Shown piece by piece: positions 19,969 to 35,577 of a DNA stretch of 35,577 nt. Each line of letters opens with the position of its first letter. The first letter of the stretch is position 1. Source of the DNA: a virus. The translations under genes were made by a program, and so were the position numbers. The notes beneath the pieces are model-generated. The model had not been told where the DNA came from, searched no databases, and saw only the letters and a list, made by a program, of their open reading frames with translations. The stretch spans positions 1 to 35,577 of the IMG/VR virus record IMGVR_UViG_3300002134_000021; one strand, given 5' to 3'.

Positions 19969-19981
19969 GCTGATAAATAGC
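19969..19981 (-). promoter_or_regulatory. GCTATTTA dyad box (GCTATTTATCAGC) abutting the ATG
   Basis: Plus strand ccatgctgataaatagc. The box ends at the base before the ATG at 19968. Confidence 0.5.
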
Positions 19982-20000
19982 TAGTTTGTAAAATTGTTGT

Positions 20001-21851
20001 TTAACCGCCTCCGAACTCCGCTTGTCCTTGTATTTGGTTTATGTTATTCTGTGAACCCGTTACTTGTGTTTCCACAACAAAGGCTTGAATAGGCATCAAT
20101 TCAGCTTGATTTGTATTCCCTAAATCAGTTGTGTTTGTTGTAACGGGGTTGAATGATGGGGGCGCGGCACTTGCAGACGATACGTTAACACTTGGTGTAA
20201 CAGCCGAACCGCCTGCTGGAACTTTATTTAGCATAGATGTAGCCGATGCTATTGCGCCAACAACAGTACCAACCATTGTAGAAATATATGACACTAACAA
20301 AAACGGTGCTGCTGGCCCCCCTGCGGATGCGGCTGATGTTGCCCCTGCTATCGCTTGACCTATTGATACAGCCGTACTGATTGCAAGTTCCGAAATGGCT
20401 AAAACCTTAGACGCTGCTAATCCTGCTTTTCCTTGATTTTCTACTGCCGAAGCTATCGAACCCAAAGCAGAACCAACGTCTAAAGCCGCTTGTATTTTAA
20501 TATTTTTTAGTTTTTCTTCTTCGTCTTTTATTTTCTTGTTATGCGCTTTCTCTTTGTCTAAGCCTTCCTTATTATACTTATCTATTATTGCTTGCCTCTC
20601 AATTAGTCCTATCGCCTCTAGTTGGTCGCGTAGTTGTCGCTCCATCTCGTTTGCGCCCATTATACCCTCCAATCTCCTTTCAAGAATAAGGTCGGCAAGT
20701 GCTAATTCCTTTGCCTCGCCATCTTCCATCAATGCAAGTTTAGCGTCTTGGAGTTGTTGGTATATTTCAACCTCCCTAGCCGCCACCTTGTCTTCAAGTG
20801 AAAACTTTATCTCCGCTTGCTTTTCAAGTTCTTCTGTTTCCTTCTTTAGCCTTTCAAGTTCAGCGATAGCGGCTGCCGCTTTCTTTTCGTTTAGGTCTTT
20901 TATTCTAGCTTGTTCAGCCGTTGCCCTTGCTGTCCTTTCCGCTTCTATTTGTTGCTCAAGCGTATTGAGTTTGTTTTGGAGTGTCGTTTGAAGTTCAAGG
21001 CTTTCCGCTTTCAGATTAGCCCGCTTAATTTCAGCGTCTGCCAACTTCTGCATAGCCTCCTCATTGGTTTCGTTGAGTGCGTTCTGTGTCTTGATTATCC
21101 GAACTTCTTCTTCAGCGTTGGCAAGTCTTCGCGCTAATAACTCCTCTTCAATCTTGCCCGCATCACGCGCGGCCTTCGACCTCTTTTCAAATGATAGCCC
21201 GATGTCCTCCGCGTCCTTGTTCAACCGCTTTATTTCCGCGCGAAGGTTAGCCGTATCAACTTCAAGTTCTCTGTTGGATACCTTTAGATTGTTCAACGCC
21301 TTCTCAAGTGCAATAGCTGATTTTACGTCCTTCGCTATCTCGTCACCAAGACCAGTGAACGAATTTTTCAGCGTATTGATTGAACCCGAAAAGTCACCTT
21401 TAACGAACTTTATCATCGCCTCGGCAACTCCGATAATCACATCTTTAAGCGAACCCATGACAGCACCAAGACCAGCCATGATAACACGTAACTTCTGCGC
21501 CCCTCTTTCAGTTTCGCCAAAGAACGTCTTAAAGATTCCAATAATTGAGCCAACAACAACACCGATAGCCGCCAAAGCCATTCCCAACGGAGTAGCAAGG
21601 AACGCAAGAGCCGCCAATGTCATTGACTTAATGCCCGCAGCAAATCCCAAAGCCGCGCCTGTTGCACCGCCTAACTGACCACCTAATTGTTTAGCGTTAT
21701 CGGCTGCTGCGCTAAAGCCTCCGCCCATTTCTTTAGAGGTCTTCTTGGTAGCCTCACCAAGCTCTTCAACTCCTTTAGTGGTCTTCTTTACGCTTGCGCC
21801 TACCTCGGAAGTATCGACAACTATCTTAAATGCTACTTCTTTATTTGCCAT
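20001..21851 (-). CDS. Tape-measure-like or internal (ejection) virion protein
   Basis: 616 aa with a long central E/K/A coiled coil flanked by Gly/Ala-rich hydrophobic segments (GAALGFAAGIKSMTLAALAFLATPLGMALAAIGVVVG and AGGPAAPFLLVSYISTMVGTVVGAIA). Confidence 0.55.
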   Translation of the reverse strand: MANKEVAFKIVVDTSEVGASVKKTTKGVEELGEATKKTSKEMGGGFSAAADNAKQLGGQLGGATGAALGFAAGIKSMTLAALAFLATPLGMALAAIGVVVGSIIGIFKTFFGETERGAQKLRVIMAGLGAVMGSLKDVIIGVAEAMIKFVKGDFSGSINTLKNSFTGLGDEIAKDVKSAIALEKALNNLKVSNRELEVDTANLRAEIKRLNKDAEDIGLSFEKRSKAARDAGKIEEELLARRLANAEEEVRIIKTQNALNETNEEAMQKLADAEIKRANLKAESLELQTTLQNKLNTLEQQIEAERTARATAEQARIKDLNEKKAAAAIAELERLKKETEELEKQAEIKFSLEDKVAAREVEIYQQLQDAKLALMEDGEAKELALADLILERRLEGIMGANEMERQLRDQLEAIGLIERQAIIDKYNKEGLDKEKAHNKKIKDEEEKLKNIKIQAALDVGSALGSIASAVENQGKAGLAASKVLAISELAISTAVSIGQAIAGATSAASAGGPAAPFLLVSYISTMVGTVVGAIASATSMLNKVPAGGSAVTPSVNVSSASAAPPSFNPVTTNTTDLGNTNQAELMPIQAFVVETQVTGSQNNINQIQGQAEFGGG

Positions 21852-24814
21852 TATACACTTATTATTCTGTAAAGAACTGTAACGGTAATTTCGGAATCCC
21901 CTGCGGTCGGGTCGCCTGTTTCCACGAATACCTCTAAATCAGCCCCGTCAATCAATTGATTAGACGTTGCGCTTGTGCCTGATGTAAGTGTTGCTGTTGA
22001 TGTTCTCGATGTTGTTGCAAATAGAAATTGCGTTCCAGTCCATCCACCCTGCGGAGAAGAAGTTCCAACGCATCTTACAACTAAATTACCATTTGTTGCG
22101 TAAGTTGAAGAACCATACACTATTTTACCATCTAAAGAAATTATACGCGCTGCATATCCTGAAGGAACTGAAATACCAAATTGTTTAGGTGTTGAGTTCA
22201 ATTGCAGAACGTCAGCACTTGCAATTGTCAACGAAGCACATTGTATTCTGCAATTGACTTGCTTATAGTTGTTTAAATACACTACATCACTTTCGCCAAC
22301 TACAACATTATCCGAATTGATAAGTACCACATTTGAAGCACCGAACAATACTTGATTGTTGTTGCCTGTTATAGTAACATTCTTACTCGCAGAACCTATG
22401 TAGTTGTTATCTCCTACTATCTTAAACGCACTTGCTGAATCGTTTACCTTGTTTCCTGTTCCGTTGACCATTCCAGTAAACGGGTTGAATAGGTTTCTTC
22501 CTAGCCTCTCTTTGATATTGGTAACTGGTAGCTTTTCACCATACGAATCAGCACCTTTTTCACCTAGTCTAAACGTTTCAACGGGTGTTTGAATAACGTC
22601 TAACACCTTAATCAACTCGACCTTTGTCAAACTTTCTTTGAACGGGTTGTAGTCAGTTACCTTGTTCAATCTCCAGTAGCTATTATCTAGCAGTATTTGG
22701 TCACGGAAATCTAGTTTAGCAATATCCCACGCGTCAAGGTAGAACGATGCACTTAGCACCTTTGAATCTTTGTTAGTTATCTCGTTTAGATAGCCCCTGT
22801 GATAGACGTTTACTAGGTTAGCGTTAGTAACTTGTAGCGTTCCCGTGTAACCGTTCTCTGTGTAGAATAGTTGTGTTGGTATTCCAAAGTTCAAATCTAA
22901 TGAAGGCGTGATAGGGTTGTCCCAATGTCCTGCATACGGATAGGTTGACTTTGGCGCGGTGTTGTTTCCACCGTTGTATCTCAATATCCAAGATGGATTA
23001 GATACTAATGTGTTGTCAAAATATAGAACTCGCGTGTTCATATCAACAGGCTTTGCACCAGTTGAAATGTCTTCATCGTAAACCTTTGGAATGATTCGGC
23101 TCGTTACGCCATCGTTGACCAATGGAGTGGGGGAGAAGTCGATTTCAACCTTCGTTGTACTGTTGATAAAGTCGTTGTCTATTTCGGTACGTGAACGCCC
23201 GTAATTATAACCGCGCAAATCTTCAAAGCGTTTGTTATAGTAGTCACCGTCATCCGAGTACGTGTAGATGTACTCTTTAGCAGTAAGCAATCCTAAAGGC
23301 TTAACTATAACTGGTTGGTCTTTTGCTAACTTATGCGACCAATCTCGTATAGTTCCACCGTTGTAGTATGTATCTCGTGTTTCAATTATAAGGTTCGTTT
23401 CGTCTAACGGGTCAACCGTAACGTACAAATTGAACATCTTAAATACTGATAACAGTAAGTCAGACATTCCAATGTCAGGCACAAAGTTATTCATGTAAAC
23501 ATTTGAACCTTCAAATACTTGTTCTTCAGCTACCTGATTGAATAGGTTAGCCCCCGTGTCCATGTTGAATGAGAACTTGTTTGATGTGTTTAAGAAGTCT
23601 AACTGTTGTGTATTGAATACAATCTCAACCCATACCACATCACCAACGAAAAGCAAGTCTTGTATTGAAGACCATTGTATTGTCGTAGTTGATGTTGAGC
23701 CAATAGGTAGACCTGACGGAATGTTAATTGATGTCTGAAGTCCATCAACGATTGATTCAACTGAATTGGAAATCTTCTTAACTATCACGGTGCAGTCTAT
23801 CGCACCAACAAATGAACCACCTGTTGCAATTCTTGTAATGGTAAAGTCTAAGTCTACGAACATTTCAACGTAGCCAATAGTGGCAGGCGAATAGAGATAG
23901 GTCGTATCATCATAAAGGTTACTGGGGTCGTTCAAGTCATCAAACGCCAATTTGAACCTATCGTAAGAAGTGCCGCTAATCACTTCAACGGTTGGTGTTT
24001 CCGTGAATAGGTCGTAGTCACTTGTTGAACGCGCTGTAAATTGCCTAGCCGTTACTTGGTCTTCCGTTAGCGTGAACGATTCTTTATACCACGGAACAAT
24101 CAGCTTATTAAAAGGTGCTGAATCAAAAAACGTTGATGTGTACGTAAACCCTGCGAAGTCGAATATCTTATCAACTACCGTCTTTAGGAATACCGCAGGT
24201 CGGAAGTCTTCTACATCGTATATCCTTCTTCCTTGCGTGTCGTAGTTAAACGCTAACCCATAATCAATCATCGGATAGGTGTAGCCGCTTGTATTGTTCC
24301 AACTTGCGGTTAATACGGGTTCTGTTAGAAAGTGGTCTAGGTCGCTGAAGTCAATGTAAGGTACAAAGGTCTCAGCAAAGCCATCATTGTCGTTATCAAT
24401 AGCCTCAACATCGTTAAGCTGCTTATCACCTAACTCACTAAATATGTTCTTTAGCTTACCAATGAAAACAACCTCATATTCAAGTTTAGTGTTTTGAATA
24501 GTTACCTGACGAAGCTGAACCACGCCTACCATAACCTCAACGCCATCATGTACTACTCTTGCTTCCGCTTTCTTGTTTGGGTTGAAGTTTACATTGACAT
24601 TTGATAGAGTAGGGTCGTATGCGTTCGCTATGTTTATCTCCCAAATGTTGCCGAATAGAATGTCATTCGCCTTAGTAGACGGGCACTTGATAGTCTTTGA
24701 ATAGGACGTGCTTCTCTTATTCGGGTCGCGTACATCTGCAATCGAATAGTTGAATGAGAAATCAAGCCCATCTTTAACGTCTAACCTATAACCTTCTATT
24801 AATACCTCAGCCAC
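21851..24814 (-). CDS. Large tail / baseplate protein
   Basis: 987 aa, the largest ORF. GTG start overlaps the upstream gene by 8 nt. The stop overlaps the next ATG (TAATG). No catalytic motif recognised. Confidence 0.55.
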   Translation of the reverse strand: MAEVLIEGYRLDVKDGLDFSFNYSIADVRDPNKRSTSYSKTIKCPSTKANDILFGNIWEINIANAYDPTLSNVNVNFNPNKKAEARVVHDGVEVMVGVVQLRQVTIQNTKLEYEVVFIGKLKNIFSELGDKQLNDVEAIDNDNDGFAETFVPYIDFSDLDHFLTEPVLTASWNNTSGYTYPMIDYGLAFNYDTQGRRIYDVEDFRPAVFLKTVVDKIFDFAGFTYTSTFFDSAPFNKLIVPWYKESFTLTEDQVTARQFTARSTSDYDLFTETPTVEVISGTSYDRFKLAFDDLNDPSNLYDDTTYLYSPATIGYVEMFVDLDFTITRIATGGSFVGAIDCTVIVKKISNSVESIVDGLQTSINIPSGLPIGSTSTTTIQWSSIQDLLFVGDVVWVEIVFNTQQLDFLNTSNKFSFNMDTGANLFNQVAEEQVFEGSNVYMNNFVPDIGMSDLLLSVFKMFNLYVTVDPLDETNLIIETRDTYYNGGTIRDWSHKLAKDQPVIVKPLGLLTAKEYIYTYSDDGDYYNKRFEDLRGYNYGRSRTEIDNDFINSTTKVEIDFSPTPLVNDGVTSRIIPKVYDEDISTGAKPVDMNTRVLYFDNTLVSNPSWILRYNGGNNTAPKSTYPYAGHWDNPITPSLDLNFGIPTQLFYTENGYTGTLQVTNANLVNVYHRGYLNEITNKDSKVLSASFYLDAWDIAKLDFRDQILLDNSYWRLNKVTDYNPFKESLTKVELIKVLDVIQTPVETFRLGEKGADSYGEKLPVTNIKERLGRNLFNPFTGMVNGTGNKVNDSASAFKIVGDNNYIGSASKNVTITGNNNQVLFGASNVVLINSDNVVVGESDVVYLNNYKQVNCRIQCASLTIASADVLQLNSTPKQFGISVPSGYAARIISLDGKIVYGSSTYATNGNLVVRCVGTSSPQGGWTGTQFLFATTSRTSTATLTSGTSATSNQLIDGADLEVFVETGDPTAGDSEITVTVLYRIISV

Positions 24815-26048
24815 GTTGTCTAGTATTTACCAATGCTTCCGTGAAATCGAAAGTATACTGCGCTAATTTGTCGTTGAGTGATGTTTGACGCTTGATGTTC
24901 TTACCGTCAATGGTAACTGCAATCAGTTCGTTGTTTAGTTCCTGATAGACAACAGGAGAAGTAAACAAATCTTCCATCCATTCACTTTCGCTATCGGTTA
25001 GAAAGTCTGTGTTTACTCTTGTTGTGCTTGTCATCTCAACGTTGTAAACCGTATTGCCTCGGCTTGCCTTGTTGTACTCCCACGATGAACCCGTAAAGTT
25101 GTGATGTTCTTGCAGATAGCTTGACCTTTTCACATCTGTGTCAACCTCACTTTTGTAGATGAAGTTGAAGCTATCAAAGCCACCCAAACGATTAAGCCAA
25201 TGCAAACGAATAGGCGTGTACTTTGAACACTTTGAATCAATGTAGAATTTGAATATTTCGCTTTCAAATGTTAACCCCTTCAAATTAACCGTATAGTACA
25301 CCGCGTTATTTAGAATGGTTGCAGGGTTGCCACCAGTCCACGCTGAAGGGTCGGAGTTCTCTATGTCGTATGTTCCACACGCAACGTAACCGTAAGTACC
25401 TGATAACCCTGATATGTTAACCGATCCGTTAGTTATTGAACCATTAACGTCATAAGACTTAATTACTAACTGGACAATATCTGACTGAGTTGCCAAGAAA
25501 TAAAGGAACGCGCTTTGATTGCTATTGATATACTGAACGTTAGGAGCATCGGTCAAGAACTTCTTGCCAGTTCCTGCGCTCATATCGTAATCAGTATAAA
25601 CGAACGAAAGCCAATCAACCTTGTTTCTAACCCCGTTCCATACCGTCTTGACCTCTGTAATGATTGAGGCACCCGTTACATAAACGCCCCCTACCTTGTG
25701 TTCCTCTTGAATGAATAGCCCGTAACTTTGAGCCATGTTTGAATTGGAGAATATGGTAGGGTGGTTAGCACTTGGAATAGATACATTAGTTTCAAGCTGC
25801 GATTGTAGAATCCGTGAAGGGTCGTAATAAGCGCGATTCTGAAACACCGAACCAATTGATGAAACACCAACACGCGGAAACACGCGAACGGTTGCAAGTG
25901 GAGGCGTTACAGGCCATCCATCGGGAAGTATAATCACCTTGAACCGTTGGCTATCTTGTAGGTAGTATTCCGTTGAATAGAACACGAACGGGTTATCGTT
26001 GTAAGCTAATCCGTATTCCTGTGGTTGAGATGCAAGTATTACCGCCAT
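24807..26048 (-). CDS. Hypothetical virion (tail) protein
   Basis: 413 aa. The ATG is directly preceded by GCTATTTAATAGC. Confidence 0.55.
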   Translation of the reverse strand: MAVILASQPQEYGLAYNDNPFVFYSTEYYLQDSQRFKVIILPDGWPVTPPLATVRVFPRVGVSSIGSVFQNRAYYDPSRILQSQLETNVSIPSANHPTIFSNSNMAQSYGLFIQEEHKVGGVYVTGASIITEVKTVWNGVRNKVDWLSFVYTDYDMSAGTGKKFLTDAPNVQYINSNQSAFLYFLATQSDIVQLVIKSYDVNGSITNGSVNISGLSGTYGYVACGTYDIENSDPSAWTGGNPATILNNAVYYTVNLKGLTFESEIFKFYIDSKCSKYTPIRLHWLNRLGGFDSFNFIYKSEVDTDVKRSSYLQEHHNFTGSSWEYNKASRGNTVYNVEMTSTTRVNTDFLTDSESEWMEDLFTSPVVYQELNNELIAVTIDGKNIKRQTSLNDKLAQYTFDFTEALVNTRQRG

Positions 26049-26061
26049 GCTATTAAATAGC
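26049..26061 (-). promoter_or_regulatory. GCTATTTA dyad box (GCTATTTAATAGC) abutting the ATG
   Basis: Plus strand catgctattaaatagc. The 13-mer is identical to 26578..26590. Confidence 0.55.
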
Positions 26062-26079
26062 TTTAAGGTTCAAATGTTT

Positions 26080-26577
26080 TTAGCTGAATGAATCAAGCAA
26101 GTCGGCTAATATCAAATCAGCATCTTCAGCAACCGCGTTGAGTATTACTTCGGGTAGTTCCTTAGTTATCAGCGATGAGGTGAAAACGTTTGTAGCAAAG
26201 TTGTTGCCCTTCGTTCCTTGCCGCCCTATCTTACGCGCTATCAGAAACGCTAAAGACTTCTTTTCTGATTCACTAAACGCTGAATCATTCTGCCCGAATC
26301 TAATCTTATCACGCACGTTTGGATATGACAACCATTCAAGTATCTTATCAATCGGGGGTTGCTTCCCTGCCTTACGTCCTCCATCAACCGCGCCCCAATA
26401 GTCAAGCATTGTAATGTCAAGTACAATCTTCTTTTGAGTGCTTTTAATGTTGAAGTTGATTGACTTATCCAGTTCACCAGATGCAATTGAATTGTCTTGT
26501 TGCAGCCCTTGTGATAGACGCTGCACAATCAATCCTCCCGTTTGTCGTAATGCTGCCGATGTGTTGGTAAAAGCCAT
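26080..26577 (-). CDS. Hypothetical virion protein
   Basis: 165 aa. The ATG is directly preceded by GCTATTTAATAGC. Confidence 0.55.
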   Translation of the reverse strand: MAFTNTSAALRQTGGLIVQRLSQGLQQDNSIASGELDKSINFNIKSTQKKIVLDITMLDYWGAVDGGRKAGKQPPIDKILEWLSYPNVRDKIRFGQNDSAFSESEKKSLAFLIARKIGRQGTKGNNFATNVFTSSLITKELPEVILNAVAEDADLILADLLDSFS

Positions 26578-26590
26578 GCTATTAAATAGC
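26578..26590 (-). promoter_or_regulatory. GCTATTTA dyad box (GCTATTTAATAGC) abutting the ATG
   Basis: Plus strand catgctattaaatagc at 26575..26590. Confidence 0.55.
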
Positions 26591-26722
26591 GTTAAGCCTT
26601 TCTTTGTTGTTGACGTTCATACGCACCCTTTGCTTTCTGATACGCTAACCTATTCAAGAACTCAATGATGTTCATCTCAAAGTAGAACTCCCATAGTTCG
26701 GGTCTACCATTGGTCAAACTGT

Positions 26723-27376
26723 CTACGGTGTAGAGCCATCCGTATTTTGATTGGAACGTGCTAACATTCGCTCCGCCCTGCGTTTGATTACTCTCCCCAG
26801 TATCTCCGAAAAGCGTGCTATACGAAGCGCGTACTTTAGATAACTTGACAAAAAAAAATCGGTCAATGGTTTGACGAATGTGATAGGTAAACTCTGCATA
26901 TGAATAGCAACTGATTCGTGAATCTTACCGTTGTACTTTGGCTTGAGCCAATGGTACTCATAAGCGAAACACGCGATAAGGTTGTGGAGGTTCTCGTCTA
27001 TCTTGTTCTCATCTTGCAGGAAGTGCATGAGCGTAATCCATTGTCCTCCTGTTATCTTGCTTGCGTCCTTTTCAAAGTAGTACCGCGTACCATTGACACG
27101 CGCCTTAGTTTTAATCTTGCCGATAATCGGGTCTTTAAGAAATGCCAACACGTTCATTATCTGATTGTGAGCAGAACGGTTAAGTGCTAGAATCTCATCC
27201 ATGTCGGTATCAGTCATTAAGCTAATCAATGCACACTCCGTATTGTAGTCGTGCAGTTCCTTTGGCGTTCCTTCCAATGCTTCGCCTCGTTGCTTTGATT
27301 CCTTTAACAGGGCGTTAATGGCTTGATACTTCTTTAGGGTTACTGATTCCCAAGAAGACGGTACTTCAATTTTCAT
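26723..27376 (-). CDS. Hypothetical protein
   Basis: 217 aa with a basic C-terminus. No family recognised. Confidence 0.55.
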   Translation of the reverse strand: MKIEVPSSWESVTLKKYQAINALLKESKQRGEALEGTPKELHDYNTECALISLMTDTDMDEILALNRSAHNQIMNVLAFLKDPIIGKIKTKARVNGTRYYFEKDASKITGGQWITLMHFLQDENKIDENLHNLIACFAYEYHWLKPKYNGKIHESVAIHMQSLPITFVKPLTDFFLSSYLKYALRIARFSEILGRVIKRRAERMLARSNQNTDGSTP

Positions 27377-27554
27377 TTTCTTTCTTTAGCTTCTCAATAT
27401 ACAACGTAGCATCCATCAACTCCTCTTGTAGATGGTTAAGCCAATCCAACAAAGATAGGTCGTTACGTTCTAATGTAGTTCCGTACTTTTCAATACCTAC
27501 TCTTGAACGTTCAGCATACTTAGCAATAACAGATTCTACAAATGGGTCACTCAT
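27366..27554 (-). CDS. Small all-alpha MazG-like / dATP-dGTP diphosphohydrolase N-terminal-like protein
   Basis: RSRVGIEKYGTTLERNDLSLLDWLNHLQEELMDATLYIEKL matches the remembered KYG...W..H..EE..D...Y pattern. It is only 62 aa. ATGA-coupled to the upstream glycosyltransferase. Confidence 0.4.
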   Translation of the reverse strand: MSDPFVESVIAKYAERSRVGIEKYGTTLERNDLSLLDWLNHLQEELMDATLYIEKLKKENEN

Positions 27555-28483
27555 AGCCTTTCTTTTCTAAGTTCGTTGACCTTGTTGAGGTCGTAGTTTT
27601 CCAATACGTAGCCACGAAGCGCAATACCTGACTTTGTGATTTCCTCAACTCCCATGCTTTCTGCCTTTCTGATAGCTTCATTCCAGTTGTTAACTTTAAA
27701 AATACCTTCAGCGTCATCGGTGTAGGGGTGAATATCTTGTACAAATATAGGAAGCCCTTTCATACCTGCCTCAATTATCTTTAGGTTAGACTTGCATCTA
27801 TTGAACTTGTTATCTTCTAAAGGTGCAATAGCTATATCGAACTGGTCGTATAGCAGACCGTAACTGTTTACGTCCAATGCTTCAATGTAATCAGCTTTGA
27901 AGTTATCAGCTAACCGCTTCCATTCGGGTTGGTCGTTGAAGCCACACACAACAGGAACGGTATCAATCCAAGCGTCCTTAGTTAGCATAAGGTCGTGAAA
28001 GTGCGTAATACCTCCTGCCCATCCTATGCGATTGCCGTACTTGGTCTTTGGTTGCCATTGCGAATCATTCGGGTCTATCGCGTTCGGTATCACATACCAG
28101 TTACTATTCAGCTTATCAACGTGCGAACCCAGCAACTCATGTGTAGTCCACACCTCATCAGCATACATTAACGCCTCGATACTTTGCTTACGTAATGCGT
28201 CTGCCGTCTTCTTAACTACGTGATTCGATGATAGAATCCAATGGTCATCAATGTCGCATATAACGTACACGCCACGCTTGCGAAGTTGCAATATAAACTC
28301 TTTCTGTTTGAGTATTGGTAACATACGATTGAACACCACCACGTCAAAGCCGTAGTCGAACGCCTCGGAACTAATGCCCTCGCAGCGCGTTACATCGTGT
28401 TCGCCATTCAATAGGCTGAACGGTTTGAGTAGTCTATGGTATTCAACGCCTCCTGAGCCTTTAGATACTATACCTATTTTCAT
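27551..28483 (-). CDS. Glycosyltransferase, GT-B-like
   Basis: N-terminal MKIGIVS Rossmann-type start and C-terminal FNRCKSNLKIIEAGMKGLPIF, resembling the GT-B donor-binding helix. The ATG overlaps the TerL stop (ATGA). Confidence 0.45.
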   Translation of the reverse strand: MKIGIVSKGSGGVEYHRLLKPFSLLNGEHDVTRCEGISSEAFDYGFDVVVFNRMLPILKQKEFILQLRKRGVYVICDIDDHWILSSNHVVKKTADALRKQSIEALMYADEVWTTHELLGSHVDKLNSNWYVIPNAIDPNDSQWQPKTKYGNRIGWAGGITHFHDLMLTKDAWIDTVPVVCGFNDQPEWKRLADNFKADYIEALDVNSYGLLYDQFDIAIAPLEDNKFNRCKSNLKIIEAGMKGLPIFVQDIHPYTDDAEGIFKVNNWNEAIRKAESMGVEEITKSGIALRGYVLENYDLNKVNELRKERL

Positions 28484-29643
28484 CGTATCGCGTATTGTCC
28501 TGACCTTGTTCGTAGTTTTTCCATTATGATATAACGCGAAGCATCAATAGCATGGTTAAAATCATCAATAGGTTCTCCTGTTTGTTCGCCTGCTCTATCC
28601 GTTGCCCATACATAGCCGCGTAGTTCACGAATCAAATTAACGGAATTACTCGTTACCATCAAAGTGTATTGTTGCATTTTGTCAATACCTGCTCTAACGC
28701 TGTCCCGTCCTTTTTGACACGCTCTAATTCTGAAACCATGTCTGCGTAGGTCTTCGATGCTTTTAGGTTCTGCGCTATCAGCTATGAACTCCTGACCTTT
28801 AAACCCTTGTATCTTATCAGCTATATCTGAATTGGTTAGCCCTTTGTCGTATAGTATCTCGTTCAACCATAGCTTACCATCAAACTCACATACCTCAACT
28901 ACTGCGGTGGGGTCGTTAGTAAAGCCCCAATCTAAGCCGTATGCCTTCCATTTGTACGAATCAGGCATCTTCTCGCATTGTTCCCAGTTGTTAAACACTA
29001 CGCCTTGTAGGTTGCCTATTTCACCTAAGCCGTACACCTTCCACCAGTTAGCCCAATACGGTGAAGTCTTACCTCGTTCTCTTGCGTGTTCTATATCGTG
29101 GCGTATCGTTTGGGGTAGTGCCTCGTTATCAAGATAGTTCAATACAAGTAGTTCAGAATCGCTATCGGGTAGCACTTCGGTATGCGCCCAGAATTGGGAT
29201 GTCGGGTTGAAGTCTAGGTAGATGTCGCCACTTGTTCTAATAGCCAATTGATGGTACGCATCGAAAGGAATGTTGTTCGCCTCGTTGACGTATAGAACGT
29301 TGCGCCTTGCACCTCTTAGCCTACCCTCTTGGTCTGCGCTGAAGAACTCAATGTAAGAACCGTTGCCAAAGTTGTATGTGAGTAGTGACCTGTTCCAACG
29401 GCTGTCAAGGTAACGCCCTGTCTCCATCATTATCTTGATGAAGTCTTTCATTGCGCCCCTACGTAAGTGCGGTATGGATTCAGATACTACGCTAATCTCT
29501 AAACGGTCTATCTTGGTTGCAAGGTCTATAAGCACTGGAAGTATTCCGAACGTCTTACCTGCTGACGTACCGCCCTGAATTACTTTCTTACGCGCGGTTA
29601 GCTTGCGTATCTTGTTTATCGCTGTTGTTCGGATGAACGTCAT
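28480..29643 (-). CDS. terL: Terminase large subunit (PBSX / Terminase_3-like)
   Basis: Walker A GGTSAGKTFG. Nuclease motifs GLDWGFTNDPTAVV, IADSAEPKSIEDLRRHG and DDFNHAIDASRYI. Confidence 0.9.
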   Translation of the reverse strand: MTFIRTTAINKIRKLTARKKVIQGGTSAGKTFGILPVLIDLATKIDRLEISVVSESIPHLRRGAMKDFIKIMMETGRYLDSRWNRSLLTYNFGNGSYIEFFSADQEGRLRGARRNVLYVNEANNIPFDAYHQLAIRTSGDIYLDFNPTSQFWAHTEVLPDSDSELLVLNYLDNEALPQTIRHDIEHARERGKTSPYWANWWKVYGLGEIGNLQGVVFNNWEQCEKMPDSYKWKAYGLDWGFTNDPTAVVEVCEFDGKLWLNEILYDKGLTNSDIADKIQGFKGQEFIADSAEPKSIEDLRRHGFRIRACQKGRDSVRAGIDKMQQYTLMVTSNSVNLIRELRGYVWATDRAGEQTGEPIDDFNHAIDASRYIIMEKLRTRSGQYAIR

Positions 29644-30050
29644 ACATTAGGCTCGTCAGGAAATAGGGGCTGTTCCTTATGTACCACCTCGCTCTTATCG
29701 GTTAGCCCGTTCAATCGTTGCGTAATGCTTGCGTTGTACTGTCCTACCATGCCGCCTTCTATTTGGTCTTGCCTTACTTGTTGCCTAACGCGCGAACGGA
29801 CTGTCGAAAATGGGGCGTACCTCTCATCAGACGAATACATATAATCGTGAATACTAAACCCTCTTTTTTGGAAGACATAGTTCTCAAAGCCTTCAATGGT
29901 TAAAGGTCTTTCAAGAGGTGTAGATACTCGTTCACCATCCTTACCAACGTACTCAACTTTGATACGTGGATTCTGCTTTACTGATTCCGCGAACTCTTGG
30001 AAGTCGGTAAACATATCTTCTGTGTGTTCGTAGTTCATTGGTCTTGGCAT
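29640..30050 (-). CDS. terS: Terminase small subunit
   Basis: 136 aa, ATGA-coupled to TerL. The ERPLTIEGF motif is typical of small terminase families. Confidence 0.6.
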   Translation of the reverse strand: MPRPMNYEHTEDMFTDFQEFAESVKQNPRIKVEYVGKDGERVSTPLERPLTIEGFENYVFQKRGFSIHDYMYSSDERYAPFSTVRSRVRQQVRQDQIEGGMVGQYNASITQRLNGLTDKSEVVHKEQPLFPDEPNV

Positions 30051-30052
30051 TA

Positions 30053-30229
30053 CTACCTAATTTTGAACAAACTATCTTCTACACTATACCATATTTCAGT
30101 ACAGTCAGGATAGTATCTGTTCATAAAGTCATTCATTCTATTTTGGTTTATCTCTGTTGCGTATGGATTGTAAAAAAACGCCCTACAAAACAACACCATA
30201 ATACTAGAACTAATTATATGTGTCTTCAT
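30053..30229 (-). CDS. Unannotated 58-aa ORF with a signal-peptide-like N-terminus
   Basis: My translation is MKTHIISSSIMVLFCRAFFYNPYATEINQNRMNDFMNRYYPDCTEIWYSVEDSLFKIR. It fills the gap on the coding strand and its ATG is preceded by CGCTATTTA. Confidence 0.4.
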   Translation of the reverse strand: MKTHIISSSIMVLFCRAFFYNPYATEINQNRMNDFMNRYYPDCTEIWYSVEDSLFKIR

Positions 30230-30238
30230 TAAATAGCG
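30230..30238 (-). promoter_or_regulatory. GCTATTTA box abutting the ATG of the 58-aa ORF
   Basis: Plus strand cattaaatagcg. The minus strand reads CGCTATTTAATG. Confidence 0.45.
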
Positions 30239-30739
30239 TTACTTCGTTACTTGTTTTGCAGGTACACCAACATAGGTACCACCTTCAGTTATGTCAGTCA
30301 ATACAACCGCACCTGCTCCGATGGTTACACAATCGCATATTGATACGCCTTCCTTAATTACAGCATTGCTACCGATGTAGACTAGGTTTCCTATCTTACA
30401 GTTGCCCGATACCCTTGCGGATGGAGATAGCGTAACGTAGTCGCCAATAGTACAATCATGTCCTATGTCACTATGTAGATTCATTACAAGGTGTTTGCCT
30501 AGTTTGCAATTGGTTGTGATTACCGAGTATGGACACATAATAAGCCCTTCGGATATTGGCGTACTGCTTCCAATGATAGCCGTGTTATGAATTAAAAACC
30601 CATTGACTGGATTGATTTGCTTTAAGACAGCCGCCATTCTAATTCGTGGCGTACCTATTGGCATAACGTCACCGCTTGTATGTGCGTTGCGTTCCCACTC
30701 TTTAACCTCAACTGAAAAGTCTCCTGTGCTTAGTATCAT
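30239..30739 (-). CDS. Left-handed beta-helix (hexapeptide) acyltransferase, NeuD/PglD-like
   Basis: Hexapeptide repeats IGHDCTIGDYVTLSPSARVSGNCKIGNLVYIGSNAVIKEGVSICDCVTIGAGAVV, then GGTYVGVPAK. Confidence 0.75.
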   Translation of the reverse strand: MILSTGDFSVEVKEWERNAHTSGDVMPIGTPRIRMAAVLKQINPVNGFLIHNTAIIGSSTPISEGLIMCPYSVITTNCKLGKHLVMNLHSDIGHDCTIGDYVTLSPSARVSGNCKIGNLVYIGSNAVIKEGVSICDCVTIGAGAVVLTDITEGGTYVGVPAKQVTK

Positions 30740-30987
30740 TTGAGTAGTTTCAAAACCTCTTTAATGTTCATTGGTGAACGGAAGTCCTCAACACCTGAGC
30801 CTATCATCGTATCTTTACCGTTGGGGTGTTCAAAGGCATAAGCTATATCAAAGAAGTACACGTTCTTGATGTCGTACACCGTATCCATATCAGAACTAAG
30901 GTTTATTCCCAAAGAATCTTCCATGTCTAAAAGCCTGTGAGATTCCTCATTATGGAAAAAGCAAGGTACTATAATTGGTAAATCCAT
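30736..30987 (-). CDS. Hypothetical protein within the sugar cassette
   Basis: 83 aa, ATGA-coupled to the acyltransferase. Confidence 0.5.
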   Translation of the reverse strand: MDLPIIVPCFFHNEESHRLLDMEDSLGINLSSDMDTVYDIKNVYFFDIAYAFEHPNGKDTMIGSGVEDFRSPMNIKEVLKLLK

Positions 30988-31679
30988 TGCATAGGTGTTC
31001 TGCCGTTACCGTGTAAGATAGCAGGCGTTGTTTTGGTTAGTTTGTTTACAACCTTTCCTTTACGTATTAAGAAGTCAGTACCTCCGTATTTAGGGTTGCC
31101 GTTATCGTCTTGATGAATGGAGAATGAAGCTTTGTCTATTCGTTTGCCTTTAGATGGTTTAACGGGGTCGAAGGCTATGCTTTGGAATAGTTCGCAGCCG
31201 TAATCTAGTTCAATCGGAAACCCGTCTTTCTTAGCCTGAATGAAAGCTACCATAGTTTCAAGTTGACAGTTAGCTGTCATAGGTAGCTTACCAATGTACT
31301 TATCAACGAACTCAATCATTAAAGCAAGTGAACCGCCATATCCTCCGTTGTTCAAGTATCGCCACGGTGTTTCGACGGTTGGTTTAGGGTACTCGTTAGC
31401 CATGTGAGGATGCGGAAAACATTGCTTTTCCGTTGACCATATCAACCTGTCGTTAGGCACGGTAAAAGGACGTTGGCAGAATGTGTCACCACCATCCGAA
31501 TAGATGAATGTATCGTGACCTGTTGCCGCCCTTCGGTACAATTGGACTAGGTTATTGAACACGCGCCCGTATGGAAACTCTGCGTTTGTTATTGCCATCT
31601 CATAGCCGAACCTTTCAAATGATTTGACCATTTGATTAGTCTGTTCGTTAGGTGCGTAGATGTTAGTACATACTATCAT
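30969..31679 (-). CDS. Glycosyltransferase, lysyl-hydroxylase (LH3/PLOD) GT-domain-like
   Basis: IYSDGGDTF (DxD-like) and YLNNGGYGGSLALMIEF, recalled as similar to YLNSGGFIG of PLOD-type GT domains. TAATG-coupled to the GT2 gene. Confidence 0.45.
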   Translation of the reverse strand: MIVCTNIYAPNEQTNQMVKSFERFGYEMAITNAEFPYGRVFNNLVQLYRRAATGHDTFIYSDGGDTFCQRPFTVPNDRLIWSTEKQCFPHPHMANEYPKPTVETPWRYLNNGGYGGSLALMIEFVDKYIGKLPMTANCQLETMVAFIQAKKDGFPIELDYGCELFQSIAFDPVKPSKGKRIDKASFSIHQDDNGNPKYGGTDFLIRKGKVVNKLTKTTPAILHGNGRTPMQWIYQL

Positions 31680-32446
31680 TAGTAATTGGCTTCTGAATAG
31701 ATTGATTTTGAACCACTAAGGTAAGCATTCTTTAGTTCATTATACGCTTTCATGTCTTCGCCCGAATGTTTTTCCTTCCAAGTTTGGTAGGGTGTTTCGC
31801 CTGTATCAATGTGGTCTATCTCAATCGAAGGAATAAAGCAAGAGTAGAAACCTGCAACGTGACAACGAACCGCAGCTAACGCATCATCAAATCCGTAAAG
31901 TCTAGGTTGATAAAGGTAGCCTATCTTGTCAAGCAAGTCGCTGTTGAACATCTGACACGTACCCATAACATGGTTGACCTTCTCAATCGGTAGCCAACGG
32001 TTATTAACGCCTCCGAGTAAAGCAAGGGTCGAACGGTAATGTGGGTTCTCGTGGTTAGGATTCTCCCAACAGTCCTTACGTTTCAATCCAACGATTCCGA
32101 TAGACGGGTCTAACTGGACGGCTAGTTCTAAATCATCGCACCAATCCTTCTTATGTATCACTACATCGTTATCCATCTTAACGCAATGCTCACCCTCCTT
32201 ACGTTCTTGCCATGCTATATTGATAGCCTTTGCCGTTCCTAGATTCTGCCCGTTGGTATGTATGGTTATGTATGGTTCAAAGTCCTTCAACAGTTGCTTC
32301 GTTGCTTTGCAGCTTGCGTTGTCAATCACGTGTATTCTATGCTTCGCCATGTTAACCGTCTGCATCAACGATTTAATCGTTCGCTTGGTGTACTCGGTTC
32401 GATTGTTTTCTTCTGTATCGTAACAGCAAAGAGCAATTAAAGCCAT
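31679..32446 (-). CDS. Family 2 (GT-A) glycosyltransferase (start moved to the ATG at 32446)
   Basis: VIDNAS, NLGTAKAINIAW and the DxD motif KMDNDV. The track start at 32575 would overlap the upstream ORF by 139 nt. MALIALCCYD begins at 32444-32446. Confidence 0.75.
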   Translation of the reverse strand: MALIALCCYDTEENNRTEYTKRTIKSLMQTVNMAKHRIHVIDNASCKATKQLLKDFEPYITIHTNGQNLGTAKAINIAWQERKEGEHCVKMDNDVVIHKKDWCDDLELAVQLDPSIGIVGLKRKDCWENPNHENPHYRSTLALLGGVNNRWLPIEKVNHVMGTCQMFNSDLLDKIGYLYQPRLYGFDDALAAVRCHVAGFYSCFIPSIEIDHIDTGETPYQTWKEKHSGEDMKAYNELKNAYLSGSKSIYSEANY

Positions 32447-32667
32447 TGTTCTAATCGTTTGCCTAGTTGTTTGAGTGAACCTCCGCAAGTCCAACACACC
32501 TCCTGCCGACCACCTACCTTTAAAAAGATGGTTTGATAGATTGCACGTTTGTCCATTGGCATAGTTCCTGACCATTGCTCCGAAGCCATGCGTTTAATCT
32601 CATCAGCGTTGACCGCCATGAACTCCAGTTCTTCCGTGTTTAAAACATCGTTGCCCATAGCTTCCAT
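32437..32667 (-). CDS. Hypothetical protein
   Basis: 76 aa containing CWTCGG. No family recognised. Confidence 0.5.
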   Translation of the reverse strand: MEAMGNDVLNTEELEFMAVNADEIKRMASEQWSGTMPMDKRAIYQTIFLKVGGRQEVCWTCGGSLKQLGKRLEQWL

Positions 32668-32864
32668 TGTACTTGACGGGTGAATACTGCAATTCCTACA
32701 AATGTAACTACCTCAATCGGATATGAATACGTTAGCAAAGATACGATTAACGACATCCAAAACGTCATACACATCTCACAGTTAAAAGGCTTAATCTGTA
32801 TTCTCTTTGTGAATTGTGTTACAGCCATTGCGAACACAGCCGTTGCCATTGCTTCTAGTATCAT
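32640..32864 (-). CDS. Small membrane protein (DUF1360-like)
   Basis: 74 aa with 2-3 hydrophobic segments. FNCEMCMTFWMSLIV resembles the DUF1360 C..C..W motif. Confidence 0.5.
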   Translation of the reverse strand: MILEAMATAVFAMAVTQFTKRIQIKPFNCEMCMTFWMSLIVSLLTYSYPIEVVTFVGIAVFTRQVQWKLWATMF

Positions 32865-33334
32865 AGCTTGTCTTTAATAGTTTGCTTAACTTCTCGTACC
32901 GTATTGTACACGCTTGAATAGTTTATACCCACTTCACCTTCAACCTTGCGTAGTGAGCCACATTGAACGTATAACTTAAACAGGTCGCGTTTATACCAAT
33001 ACACGCCTTTCAGAATGTCTTCAACCTTGTCTAGTAGTTCGTCAATGCTTTCATCGTATTCTTGCTCACTATCAAAGTTCAAGTCCTCAACGTTGATATA
33101 CTTCTTACTGTAAAGTTTGGTGAAGTTGCCTCTTGCTCCTGTCATGTTTATCATTACACGAACGCACCAAAAGTTAAAATACTGCGATAGCTTTTCAAGT
33201 TCTGAATCATCCTTCTCACATATTATCAGCGCAAGTTCCTGAATCAAGTCGGCTCTATCTTCGCCTACTAAGCGATACGCTAAAGAGTTTAGCGAAGGGT
33301 CGTTTAATACTTGGTTGCATAGGCGTTCTTTCAC
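32861..33334 (-). CDS. ECF-like sigma-70 family factor
   Basis: Region 2-like RADLIQELALIICEK...YFNFWCVRVMINM. Region 4 HTH-like DLFKLYVQCGSLRKVEGEVGINYSSVYNTVREVKQTI. GTG start. Confidence 0.6.
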   Translation of the reverse strand: MKERLCNQVLNDPSLNSLAYRLVGEDRADLIQELALIICEKDDSELEKLSQYFNFWCVRVMINMTGARGNFTKLYSKKYINVEDLNFDSEQEYDESIDELLDKVEDILKGVYWYKRDLFKLYVQCGSLRKVEGEVGINYSSVYNTVREVKQTIKDKL

Positions 33335-33399: not shown

Positions 33400-34491
33400 T
33401 CAAACGTGATGCGTTAACCTTGCAACCTGACCGTTCTCAAATGAATGTAGGAAGCCTTCAATCGCTTTCTTCGCTCCAACGTAGCCTTGACGGTCATGCC
33501 ATGAATCCGAAGGCGATGGAGTTCTAAGGTATTCAGCCGTTACACCTATAAAGTCTTTACCACTCATAAACTTATGCGTTTGCTTGTGGTGAATGTGGTG
33601 CAAGTAGATATACCTAAACGGACAATCAGCAAACATTTGCGGTTGCTCCATTGCCATCAACATTGGTGTTTGGTCTAACTTAGCCCCATCTCCGTGGCTT
33701 GTGGCAATCATATTAACCCCGTATTTCGTGTACTTGCGGTGTCTAATACTAACGTCAAACGTCACATTCTTTGACCATCTGAAATACGCTTCGATTGTTT
33801 GAGCAAGCATAAAGCCACTCATATAATCATGGTTGGATGGGTTAAAGATAATCTCAACATCTGAATAGGGTAGTATTCGCTCAATAGCCCTAACGTACAT
33901 TTCTTTTGCAGCTATAAATGCTTCGTGCCACATTCCGCTTGTATCTTGCGGTGTTCCGCTTGTGGTCGTTCGTCTTGGCGTGTCAATGTGCAAGCAATCA
34001 TTCCCGATAACAAATATCACTTTGTCAATGTTGAATCCGAACGCCTTAGATAGAATACCGTCAACGCCTTCGTCTACTTGCTTAACAGCTTTATCAATGT
34101 CGTAATGTGAACCAGTTTCAGATAGTGTCGCGTATTTGCCAACATGAACGTCAGCAGGGTCTATAATCAAGCAATGAGGGTCAGTTACCTTTGACCGTTT
34201 AATGGTGTCAAACTTTGGGCTGTAACTTTGAAGGTCTAATAGTATCGGCTCGAATAGTTCTTCTAACGTAACCCCTTCGTTCTTTGCGAAGATTGAGAAC
34301 TTCTCGGACTTGTGCCAGTAGTGCTTAACGTCCTTTAGTTGTATTCCTGCCGCTTTGCATTGCTCTAATAGTTCGGGCAAATGACCTTTCTCGCGCCATG
34401 CTTCGATTATCTCAAACTCTTCTTTGGTAATCCGTGGGCGAAAGTTGTTTACTGCCATTGTTTTGGGGTTTAGTCTATTCTTGTAACTCAA
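33400..34491 (-). CDS. Calcineurin-like metallophosphoesterase with a ~100-aa N-terminal extension
   Basis: Motif series DPADVHVG, IGNDCLH, NPSNHD, TSHGDG, LHHIHH. Confidence 0.65.
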   Translation of the reverse strand: MSYKNRLNPKTMAVNNFRPRITKEEFEIIEAWREKGHLPELLEQCKAAGIQLKDVKHYWHKSEKFSIFAKNEGVTLEELFEPILLDLQSYSPKFDTIKRSKVTDPHCLIIDPADVHVGKYATLSETGSHYDIDKAVKQVDEGVDGILSKAFGFNIDKVIFVIGNDCLHIDTPRRTTTSGTPQDTSGMWHEAFIAAKEMYVRAIERILPYSDVEIIFNPSNHDYMSGFMLAQTIEAYFRWSKNVTFDVSIRHRKYTKYGVNMIATSHGDGAKLDQTPMLMAMEQPQMFADCPFRYIYLHHIHHKQTHKFMSGKDFIGVTAEYLRTPSPSDSWHDRQGYVGAKKAIEGFLHSFENGQVARLTHHV

Positions 34492-35108: not shown

Positions 35109-35410
35109 CCTTCGTTAATTAATTGGTTCAACTTCTCAATCGATGCGTTACGGGCTTCTTGACGGGTTTTACATACGCCTTCATTAAAACTGCGCAGTAA
35201 ATCACATAACGCCCAAAAGTATTCTAAGGGGTGTTCTTTGCTTATGTATAATTCATACCCCAAACTATCAGCCCAATCTTGATACGCACCCCACATAAAC
35301 GATTCTGGTAGGTCTTTGAACCATTCGTATTGTCGAAATGTGCCTTCTTGGTATTGGTCAACGTAATACGCTCTAAAAGCTTCCTTTGCTTTACCTGTTA
35401 GTGGTGTCAT
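35105..35410 (-). CDS. Hypothetical protein
   Basis: 101-aa ORF. Its 5' 198 nt are duplicated at 1..198. Confidence 0.6.
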   Translation of the reverse strand: MTPLTGKAKEAFRAYYVDQYQEGTFRQYEWFKDLPESFMWGAYQDWADSLGYELYISKEHPLEYFWALCDLLRSFNEGVCKTRQEARNASIEKLNQLINEG

Positions 35411-35577
35411 TTCTCGTTGTTTTTAATCGTTTCGTACAGCCACTCAATCCCCTTTTGCAGCCGTGGTTTAGCCGTTGACGTTGCGTAACTATTCGCATTA
35501 ACATACCCGAAAGCCTTAGCGATGTCAGCATTCTTTATCCTTAGTTCCTTTTTGATTTGCTTGATTGTCATTTGGTT
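35213..35577. repeat. Terminal redundancy copy B, identical to 1..365
   Basis: Same by-eye alignment as copy A. 35577-35213+1 = 365. Confidence 0.9.
35407..35577 (-). CDS. 3' part of the 91-aa ORF (duplicate of 195..365), truncated by the window end
   Basis: Lies inside the terminal redundancy. Confidence 0.6.
   Translation of the reverse strand, partial: NQMTIKQIKKELRIKNADIAKAFGYVNANSYATSTAKPRLQKGIEWLYETIKNNEK

Follow-up and report, generated by a model that had tools for sequence, protein, structure and literature searches.

A glycosyltransferase cassette beside the terminase genes of an uncultured phage and its possible role in virion-protein glycosylation

Why would a phage carry enzymes of sugar transfer on both sides of the genes that package its DNA, and what would these enzymes decorate? 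This question is raised by the viral record IMGVR_UViG_3300002134_000021, of which we analysed the whole stretch of 35,577 nucleotides (hereafter the window). Around the genes of its small and large terminase subunits (terS and terL), the window encodes three soluble glycosyltransferases (GTs) that look catalytically intact, together with an acetyltransferase of the PglD/VioB type. The reading that we rank first, and that we propose tentatively, is that these enzymes form a cytoplasmic and late-expressed pathway by which a short glycan is assembled on a molecule of the phage itself, a virion protein being the likeliest acceptor. The features of this cassette are the following, in the direction of reading:

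31679-32446, minus strand: GT2-family GT-A glycosyltransferase, 255 aa (PF00535)
30969-31679, minus strand: stand-alone LH3/PLOD-type GT-A glycosyltransferase, 236 aa (PF25342)
30736-30987, minus strand: acidic open reading frame (ORF) of 83 aa, g83 (no family match)
30239-30739, minus strand: NeuD/PglD/VioB-type LbH (hexapeptide) sugar N-acetyltransferase, 166 aa (Hexapep, VioB, TIGR03570)
30053-30237, minus strand: 188-nt spacer between the LbH gene and terS (promoter-like motif and a doubtful 58-aa ORF)
29640-30050, minus strand: TerS (PF16677 at 3.5e-11, phrog_606)
28480-29643, minus strand: TerL (PF17288 at 1.6e-16, several TerL PHROGs)
27551-28483, minus strand: compact GT4-like GT-B glycosyltransferase, 310 aa (phrog_7162 at 2e-56, AlphaFold2 fold)

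The original prediction had called three GTs and an LbH acyltransferase at this locus, and all four calls proved right, through Pfam matches for the GT2, LH3-type and LbH proteins, through AlphaFold2 (AF2) models and Foldseek for the folds of the GT2 and GT-B proteins, and through matches of the LbH protein to VioB and PglD. The GT2 frame could reach position 32575, and the ATG at 32446 agrees with the 255-aa gene called in near-identical contigs. Its product matches PF00535 with 41 bits for a cut-off of 23.3 (E=2.5e-10), its DxD motif is D92-N-D94, and this DND motif is invariant in 30 homologues, as is an FDD motif. The AF2 model of this protein (pLDDT 90.5) adopts a GT-A fold, the top Foldseek matches of which (TM 0.55-0.64) are polypeptide GalNAc-transferases (GalNAc-T2) and S. 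aureus TarS/TarP, at E values of about 1e-10, and a Leptospira GT. GT2 is also the most widely conserved gene of the cassette, with 1,694 homologous clusters.

The LH3-type enzyme matches PF25342 with 51.4 bits for a cut-off of 27 (E=1e-13), and a profile made from 28 family members matches the whole GT domain of human LH3 (E=1e-23, positions 2-205 of 211). Its best match in the PDB is mimivirus R699 (profile E=4e-24), which was experimentally characterised as a collagen galactosylhydroxylysyl glucosyltransferase (PMC9546862, PMC12279948). In 28 sequences, residues D62, D65, H223, N225 and G226 do not vary. The pair D62/D65 and the stretch H223-G-N-G line up with the 'vDsyD' and 'HGNG' segments of human LH3 and mimivirus R699, which in LH3 hold the Mn2+-binding DxxD and the HGNG histidine (D112/D115/H253). 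Judged from this alignment, the window encodes an LH3-type GT with its metal-binding residues intact. Its chemistry is LH3-like, yet this is not a collagen glucosyltransferase system, because no frame of the genome contains more than four Gly-X-Y repeats in a run and because the genome scans described below identified no 2-oxoglutarate (2OG) oxygenase or lysyl hydroxylase.

The LbH protein has a Hexapep match at 6.8e-14, and its nearest structures are VioB (7txp, 2e-27) and PglD (about 1e-20). It aligns solely to residues 63-204 of VioB, and it matches TIGR03570 (NeuD/PglB/VioB) at model positions 63-202 only, with an E value of 1.8e-40 and 138.7 bits, under the cut-off of 160.8. Its beta-helix and conserved catalytic His turn are intact, the segment 'DIGHDCTIG' that aligns with the His turn of VioB being kept in all relatives. 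Its N-terminal nucleotide-binding domain is degenerate, reading ILSTGDFSVEV in the window versus IIGxGGFGREV in relatives, and about 25 residues of this domain are missing when compared to all relatives examined; the enzyme may use a non-nucleotide acceptor or may be impaired. The neighbouring g83 gave no family match in Pfam, PHROG or TIGR scans and is confined to the closest relatives (loci L031, L083, L086 and L100-L103 of our collection, described below). That g83 could be the detached N-terminal domain of the LbH protein was considered by eye and rejected, because in relatives the intact N-terminal domain corresponds to the first 45 residues of the window's own LbH protein and not to g83.

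The GT-B protein has no Pfam match, and some of its homologues at 36-55% identity carry PF13692 or PF00534. Its AF2 model (pLDDT 94.7) is a compact GT4-like GT-B fold with two Rossmann domains, which Foldseek matched to PglA, GlgM, BshA, MshA and the size-matched Gtf3/GtfC (E 1e-12 to 1e-9) and also to ManT and PimB', with a probability of 1.0 for ManT, PglA, GlgM, BshA, MshA and Gtf3 and TM-scores of at most 0.72. A tetrahydrobiopterin glucosyltransferase is also among its GT4-like matches. No transmembrane segment was found in any of the four cassette enzymes. Two GT-B paralogues (about 32% identity) are present in Escherichia phage PaulScherrer (L002, MZ501100.1 47580-50756), as is typical of phAPEC8-like Stephanstirmvirinae, where two more GT genes lie beside them and genes for a primase/helicase and a DNA polymerase adjoin the group; nothing was found in the published literature on the function of these homologues.

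Which genes accompany the cassette, and which do not, can be told for the phage as a whole. Bases 1-365 of the window are an exact copy of bases 35213-35577, so that, with its terminal overlap of 365 bp, the window represents the whole genome, in circularly closed or terminally redundant form. The unique genome has 35,212 bp, in agreement with contigs of 34-37 kb in relatives, and all its genes lie on the minus strand. Since the genome is complete, a gene that is absent from the window is absent genome-wide. Pfam (E<=1e-3 to 1e-2) and PHROG scans over every sizeable ORF identified a primase-helicase, a Gp157-family protein, a Rad52-like protein, a portal, an S78 protease, a tape measure protein and a LamG-like domain. 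The same scans of the complete genome gave no match to a thymidylate synthase homologue, TET/JBP or a C5-methylase, so that the earlier statement that no thymidylate-synthase-like base hydroxymethylase is present holds and can be widened to these other enzymes. They gave no match to GtrA/B/C, an Oac-type acyltransferase or an integrase either, which, together with the lack of transmembrane segments in the cassette enzymes, upholds the earlier remark on missing Gtr and Oac proteins. Flippase and polymerase genes are equally absent from the genome, no tRNA gene was found in it, and its ORFs contain no gene for nucleotide-sugar synthesis, so that donor sugars must be supplied by the host. Since there is no integrase gene, we presume that this uncultured siphophage is virulent. 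A Bacteroidota host is plausible, considering that the closest cultured TerL proteins are from Flavobacterium psychrophilum phages (50% identity, phage FpV9), that one related contig was binned with a Pseudobacter (Bacteroidota) metagenome-assembled genome (MAG) and that no Shine-Dalgarno-like sequences are found in the regions upstream of genes.

The cassette takes up about 10% of this 35-kb genome and, as read straight off the sequence, it is almost entirely made of touching genes. In order to describe these junctions and what lies on either side, the neighbouring features are needed:

33400-34491, minus strand: 363-aa protein (no family match)
32861-33334, minus strand: ECF-like sigma factor candidate, 157 aa (TIGR02937 at E=3e-5, under the cut-off)
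32640-32864, minus strand: small hydrophobic protein, 74 aa (marginal transmembrane signal)
32437-32667, minus strand: 76-aa ORF with a CxxC motif (called from the ORF and its junction with the GT2 gene)
27366-27554, minus strand: 62-aa acidic ORF (only PHROGs of unknown function)
26723-27376, minus strand: g217, first of the conserved downstream genes (comparison with relatives)

ATGA junctions link the sigma-like gene to the 74-aa gene, g83 to the LbH gene, terS to terL, terL to the GT-B gene and the GT-B gene to the 62-aa ORF, while a TAATG junction links the GT2 and LH3-type genes. The other neighbours overlap by 28 nt (74-aa gene and 76-aa ORF), 10 nt (76-aa ORF and GT2 gene), 19 nt (LH3-type gene and g83) and 11 nt (62-aa ORF and g217). 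The original prediction had described a chain of TAATG, ATGA and short-overlap junctions, which is correct for most of them but not for the step from the LbH gene to terS, where a gap of 188 nt is the sole break. The GT-B gene at least is translationally coupled to terL. Its ATG overlaps the TerL stop and its own stop overlaps a mini-gene, as had been stated, but the description of this 62-aa ORF as MazG-like found no support in Pfam or the PDB, and it is also separate from the GT-B gene in relatives, for example between terS and terL in L056. Since overlapping junctions are frequent throughout the genome, as from g413 to g987 and from g987 to the tape measure gene, coupling is a trait of the phage rather than of the cassette.

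The break between the LbH gene and terS matters for the timing of expression. This spacer contains the motif GCTATTTA at 30230-30237. In the extended form GCTATTTA[ACT][TC]AGC, the motif directly precedes five late-gene start codons, at these sites:

17077-17084, 19974-19981, 26054-26061, 26583-26590 and 30230-30237, minus strand: copies of the promoter-like motif

An AACAA(T)TTT box is found about 10 nt upstream of each copy, the copy at 17077 follows a clear terminator hairpin (GAACCCTGTCTTCGGATGGGGTTTTTTG, about 17100-17135), and a variant near 33340 precedes the sigma-like gene. Equivalent sites in relatives also have the motif: in L083 it precedes both g165 and g413, in L086 it precedes g413, and in L018 it precedes terS. 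It may serve a phage sigma factor as promoter, or it may signal leaderless starts. If it is a late promoter or leaderless start, then one unit would comprise terS, terL and the GT-B gene, and an earlier one the genes from the sigma-like gene through GT2, the LH3-type GT, g83 and LbH. The break is not universal, since the LbH gene directly abuts terS in L086 and L022. The earlier view that the sugar enzymes are made together with the packaging genes, directly behind a sigma factor, would fit the GT-B gene by its position and its coupling to terL, but is not supported for the half from GT2 to LbH, which is coupled to the sigma-like gene that heads this overlapping chain rather than to terS. The call of the sigma factor itself is weak, with a single sub-threshold match (TIGR02937, 23.6 bits for a cut-off of 42.9). 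Its homologues are present in 23 related loci, including loci that lack the cassette. The doubtful 58-aa ORF of the spacer (30053-30229) had no tblastn match in any related locus.

The three small genes at the head of this chain (the sigma-like, 74-aa and 76-aa ones) are also retained in relatives that do not have the sugar enzymes. The 74-aa protein, with its marginal transmembrane signal (KD19 maximum of 1.61), has a 90-aa homologue in the cassette-less loci L014 and L016, and is therefore not specific to the cassette. Homologues of the 76-aa ORF (26-30% identity) are likewise kept in cassette-less relatives, which places it outside the sugar pathway proper; for the same reason, the idea that this CxxC ORF is a glycocin-like peptide substrate was rejected. 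Just upstream of the sigma-like gene, the 363-aa gene (33400-34491) shows calcineurin-like phosphoesterase motifs by eye (GNDCLH, SNHD, SHGDG and HHIHH), and close relatives keep a 352-aa version of it.

Is the position of the cassette beside the terminase genes stable? We compared 33 loci of TerL relatives from IMG/VR with flanks of 3.5 kb or more upstream and 1.3 kb or more downstream of terL. One or several cassette GTs were found in 16 of the 33 loci, and every cassette gene was missing in the other 17. One group is arranged as in the window (GT2, LH3-type GT, g83 in some, LbH, TerS, TerL, GT-B); others have the GT-B and GT2 genes, with or without the LH3-type gene, all upstream of terS, or the GT-B gene only, or none. 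In near-identical strains, the TerL proteins of which share about 99% identity, a 117-aa ORF separates terL from the GT-B gene, and in one of them a 140-aa ORF separates g83 from the LbH gene. These strains, from aquatic samples, are L100-L103 (JGI 3300072488, 3300072551 and 3300075144), of which L101 and L103 contain duplicated segments that resemble assembly concatemers. In the cassette-less L014, a DPPY-type N6/N4 DNA methyltransferase gene (4790-5530) occupies the slot behind terL where the window has its GT-B gene. The slots that flank terS and terL are therefore variable accessory slots, as the absences, the ORF insertions, the methylase swap and the shifts of the GT-B gene to a place upstream of terS all indicate, and the original claim that these genes do not sit in a moron position has to be abandoned.

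Within this variability, one element is constant. The stand-alone LH3-type family (GT_PLOD) directly follows GT2, in the same order, in 8/8 additional contexts that were examined individually, down to 26% identity. In five of these eight, the pair immediately precedes the terminase genes or separates them; in L136, terL follows about 3.3 kb further downstream, behind intervening tailoring genes, and L137 and L138 are short contigs in which no terminase gene was called. Whether related phages keep the GT genes with the terminase genes, as had been asked, thus has a divided answer, the pair being constant in all eight contexts and terminase-linked in six, but 17 of the 33 loci having no GTs. Where present, the cassette stays beside terS and terL in three permutations, before terS, between terS and terL, or after terL, and in some relatives it is enlarged to about 10 kb between the two. 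The expanded cassettes contain DegT-like (aminotransferase-like), WbqC, SDR epimerase, ATP-grasp, methyltransferase, LbH and PhyH-type oxygenase genes. Examples are L105:3469-14868, L136:3442-10610 and L137:1688-5849; the DegT-like protein is of half length (213-222 aa), a length kept in four loci, and the PhyH-type 2OG oxygenase of L105 is nearest to PhyH and to the sugar epimerase SnoN.

In metagenomes, the stand-alone GT_PLOD family comprises 3,589 clusters (50% identity, E<=1e-3) among 1.84 billion representatives. Neither the LH3-type GT nor GT2 had a tblastn match in 50,697 records of cultured phages, so that none of the isolated phages offers a functional proxy. A search of 185,579 species genomes, which was pattern-based and of limited sensitivity, found GT_PLOD at one locus, on a phage-like MAG contig. 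The GC content of the cassette is not anomalous, so it looks long resident. Altogether, the cassette is accessory and essentially phage-specific.

How could such enzymes work together? In the reading that we favour, they would work one after another in the cytoplasm, in the middle to late phase of infection, using host nucleotide sugars. GT2 would initiate and the LH3-type and GT-B enzymes would extend, with up to three transfers, while N-acetylation by the LbH enzyme would take place on an amino sugar that is still bound to its nucleotide carrier or already part of the glycan. An amino-sugar role of the LbH enzyme is supported by the DegT-like genes of relatives; the phage of the window would have to take the amino sugar from its host, and this step is made uncertain by the degenerate LbH N-terminus. 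The product would be a short oligosaccharide with one N-acetylated amino-sugar unit, and its acceptor a phage-made macromolecule under assembly at that time, the likeliest being a virion protein that would receive an O-linked decoration. Such a glycan could mask or stabilise particles, or change adsorption.

We rank a virion protein first because the gene content excludes the known DNA and seroconversion routes, because the phage lacks an integrase, being presumably virulent, and the family is phage-specific, because the characterised LH3-type relatives (LH3 and R699) act on protein-linked glycans and because precedents exist in actinophages, including Streptomyces phage Zuko. Polypeptide GalNAc-transferases among the top structural matches of GT2 fit this choice, as do the size-matched Gtf3/GtfC among those of the GT-B enzyme, which extend glycans of serine-rich adhesins, and the junction overlaps that tie the GT-B gene to terL and the downstream virion genes. 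The GT2 and GT-B proteins are also acidic (pI 6.1 and 5.6), which does not suggest DNA binding; this is weak evidence.

Several observations weigh against a virion protein. A search for an acceptor gave none: collagen-like repeats and a lysyl hydroxylase were not found in the genome, and the capsid and tail proteins bear no Ser/Thr-rich C-terminal extensions, the capsid ending in ...VAFPAEVITILP and the Ser/Thr-rich stretches being internal. The Foldseek matches mix protein, teichoic-acid, lipid-linked and small-molecule acceptors, so the folds do not reveal the acceptor, and TarP, BshA, MshA and PglH-like folds are also the top matches of proven DNA glycosyltransferases (bioRxiv 10.1101/2023.12.21.572611). 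Since the terminase slots are accessory hot spots, adjacency may reflect tolerance of insertions rather than function. Being coupled to the sigma-like gene, the upstream half may be expressed before the virion genes, and the acetylation step may be altered or inactive in view of the degenerate LbH N-terminus.

The alternative that survives best, a serious rival that we nevertheless hold less probable, is that the enzymes edit the envelope glycans of the host. They would modify undecaprenyl-linked intermediates of O-antigen, capsule or protein glycans at the cytoplasmic face of the membrane, and export of the altered glycan would fall to the flippase and polymerase of the host; the altered surface would block superinfection or save progeny from adsorbing to infected cells or debris. 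GT2, GT4 and NeuD/PglD/VioB enzymes are standard parts of O-antigen and Pgl pathways, where they usually work on lipid-linked acceptors without membrane segments of their own, and PglA, PimB', TarS/TarP and GumK are among the top structural matches here. The WbqC, DegT-like and SDR epimerase genes of the expanded relatives are typical of O-antigen loci, and the patchy distribution in relatives would suit an accessory fitness gene. A small hydrophobic protein is encoded upstream, but it is present in cassette-less relatives too. The genome has no flippase, polymerase, GtrA/B/C or Oac, and the missing integrase means that this would not be lysogenic conversion. Coupling to terL, seen at least for the GT-B gene, would make a surface change come late, and GT_PLOD is nearly absent from cells and was therefore not recently taken from host glycan loci. 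Host editing was also proposed by the authors of the phi18:1 study for a GT in the structural module of that phage (PMC11946311).

Less probable again, and in our view unlikely, is that these genes are hot-spot cargo, lying near the terminase genes through insertion tolerance and acting on a host metabolite or protein, or in no single pathway. The content of the slots does vary in close relatives, between a 117-aa ORF, a 140-aa ORF, a DNA methylase and nothing, but GT2 and GT_PLOD are adjacent and in the same order in 8/8 contexts, and the GT-B and LbH genes accompany this pair far above the frequency of chance cargo. Small-molecule enzymes (BshA, MshA, GlgM and the tetrahydrobiopterin glucosyltransferase) are among the GT4-like matches, and the PhyH oxygenase of L105 is nearest to small-molecule or sugar-tailoring enzymes such as SnoN; on the other hand, a phage of 35 kb would hardly spend some 10% of its genome on a minor function, and the ordinary GC content suggests a long residence.

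Glycosylation of the phage DNA, by which a short glycan would be put on it shortly before packaging as a defence against restriction, appears very unlikely. Known hypermodification clusters do use TarP/BshA/MshA/PglH-like enzymes of the GT-A and GT-B types and may adjoin terminase or structural genes (bioRxiv 10.1101/2023.12.21.572611), hypermodification is finished late, ahead of packaging (PMC13326640), one relative has a DNA methylase in the same slot behind terL, and the varied sugar-tailoring genes of relatives resemble the glycan diversity of DNA modification. All known routes to DNA sugars, however, need a hydroxylated base, made by a ThyA homologue or by a C5-methylase with 5mYOX/TET (bioRxiv 10.1101/2023.12.21.572611; PMC13326640), and no base-hydroxylating enzyme was found in the complete genome or in the eight related contexts. 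The top 50 PDB matches of the GT2 and GT-B models do not include T4 alpha/beta-GT or JGT, and a single 'DNA alpha-glucosyltransferase' annotation appears at rank 34 in BFVD. The acidity of the GT2 and GT-B proteins speaks against DNA as well, and the phage already has its own N6/N4 DNA methylase. This methylase is part of a 723-aa fusion (4240-6411, minus strand) with an SNF2/DEAD-type helicase, which the near-identical strains replace with two separate N6_N4 methylase genes or an extra C5-methylase-like gene. The idea that the phage chromosome or another packaging substrate is glycosylated without a ThyA/TET-type hydroxylated pyrimidine, which would be a new class of DNA sugar modification, maintained beside the packaging motor by a large group of uncultured siphophages, is the least probable of all.

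A few observations on the rest of the phage complete the description. Downstream of the cassette (11848-27376, minus strand), the virion module has an unusual order, which runs from terL through g217, g165, g413, g987, the tape measure gene, the S78 protease, a scaffold-like protein, the capsid candidate, small Ser/Thr-rich proteins and the portal to a 643-aa protein with a LamG-like C-terminal part; the portal gene (14365-16251) thus lies about 12 kb downstream of terL. Loci centred on the capsid gene lie mostly on short contigs, which do not show whether a cassette is present. A megablast search of the region against cultured phages gave no match, and PADLOC gave none for the cassette proteins.

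What would these genes add to the known uses of phage glycosylation? Three are established: protection of DNA, lysogenic seroconversion and, since 2023, shielding of actinophage virions. The gene content of the cassette fits neither of the first two. Coming back to a virion protein as the target, the cassette might turn out to be the first multi-enzyme pathway of virion O-glycosylation outside actinophages, built around a phage-specific LH3-type transferase. The novelty claimed at first has to be tempered, however, since virion glycosylation is established in actinophages and a GT had been noted before in the structural module of a Flavobacteriia phage (PMC11946311). If a virion protein is indeed the target, particle glycosylation would extend to aquatic phages of Gram-negative bacteria (Bacteroidota), and the variable sugar-tailoring genes would point to selection on glycan structure. 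This would bear on phage-host recognition, on the stability of particles in the environment and on the annotation of phage GTs as "auxiliary metabolic genes". If DNA is the target, a new modification chemistry would be implied. For either target, the GT2-GT_PLOD pair beside the terminase genes is a clear marker for picking phages and genes to test.

Among the systems that are already known, lysogenic seroconversion by GtrABC or Oac differs the most plainly, since the window has no integrase, no Gtr or Oac match and no transmembrane segment in its cassette enzymes. The clusters of DNA hypermodification (T4 alpha/beta-GT; methyltransferase, 5mYOX and GT) resemble the cassette in their several GTs of the GT-A and GT-B types, their use of host nucleotide sugars and their variable glycans, but these clusters, including that of 5hoC arabinosylation (PMC13326640), have a ThyA-like enzyme or a C5-methyltransferase with a TET-like dioxygenase, which the window lacks. 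The amino-sugar pathways of Pgl, Vio and O-antigen loci share with it an LbH enzyme nearest to VioB/PglD, a GT-B enzyme that matches PglA and, in relatives, DegT-like, WbqC and epimerase genes; unlike these loci, the window has no membrane components, aminotransferase or dehydratase, the N-terminus of its LbH enzyme is degenerate and GT_PLOD is essentially phage-only.

Closer likenesses are found in viruses. Mimivirus R699/L230 and the capsid GTs of the chlorovirus PBCV-1 are virus-encoded GT-A enzymes that come with sugar N-acetyltransferases and work independently of the host, but the hosts are eukaryotic and the acceptor is hydroxylysine on collagen-like proteins, while the phage enzyme is stand-alone, with about 220-240 aa. 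In Streptomyces phage Zuko, the genes immediately upstream of the terminase gene, gp4-gp5, encode an epimerase of nucleotide sugars and a homologue of the GT-B enzyme (28% identity, 55% of the query covered), and in the Flavobacteriia phage phi18:1 of Cellulophaga, gp41 is a GT inside the structural module (PMC11946311); unlike the window, these two phages have a single GT each and no LH3-type or GT2 partner. Among mycobacteriophages, GTs act on the capsid and the tail tube (Freeman et al. 2023, Cell Host Microbe, as cited in PMC11600133, PMC12619734 and PMC12582341). As these citing accounts present them, they resemble the cassette in being tandem phage GTs, sometimes with a sugar-tailoring enzyme (an O-methyltransferase in cluster O), that act in the cytoplasm on virion subunits, with no machinery for DNA modification or seroconversion. 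Their hosts, however, are Actinobacteria, their glycans have been shown on C-terminal extensions of capsid and tail-tube proteins, of which the window shows none, and the accounts mention no LH3-type GT. What distinguishes the present cassette is thus its phage-specific LH3-type transferase, its stable GT2-GT_PLOD core and its persistent linkage to the packaging genes.

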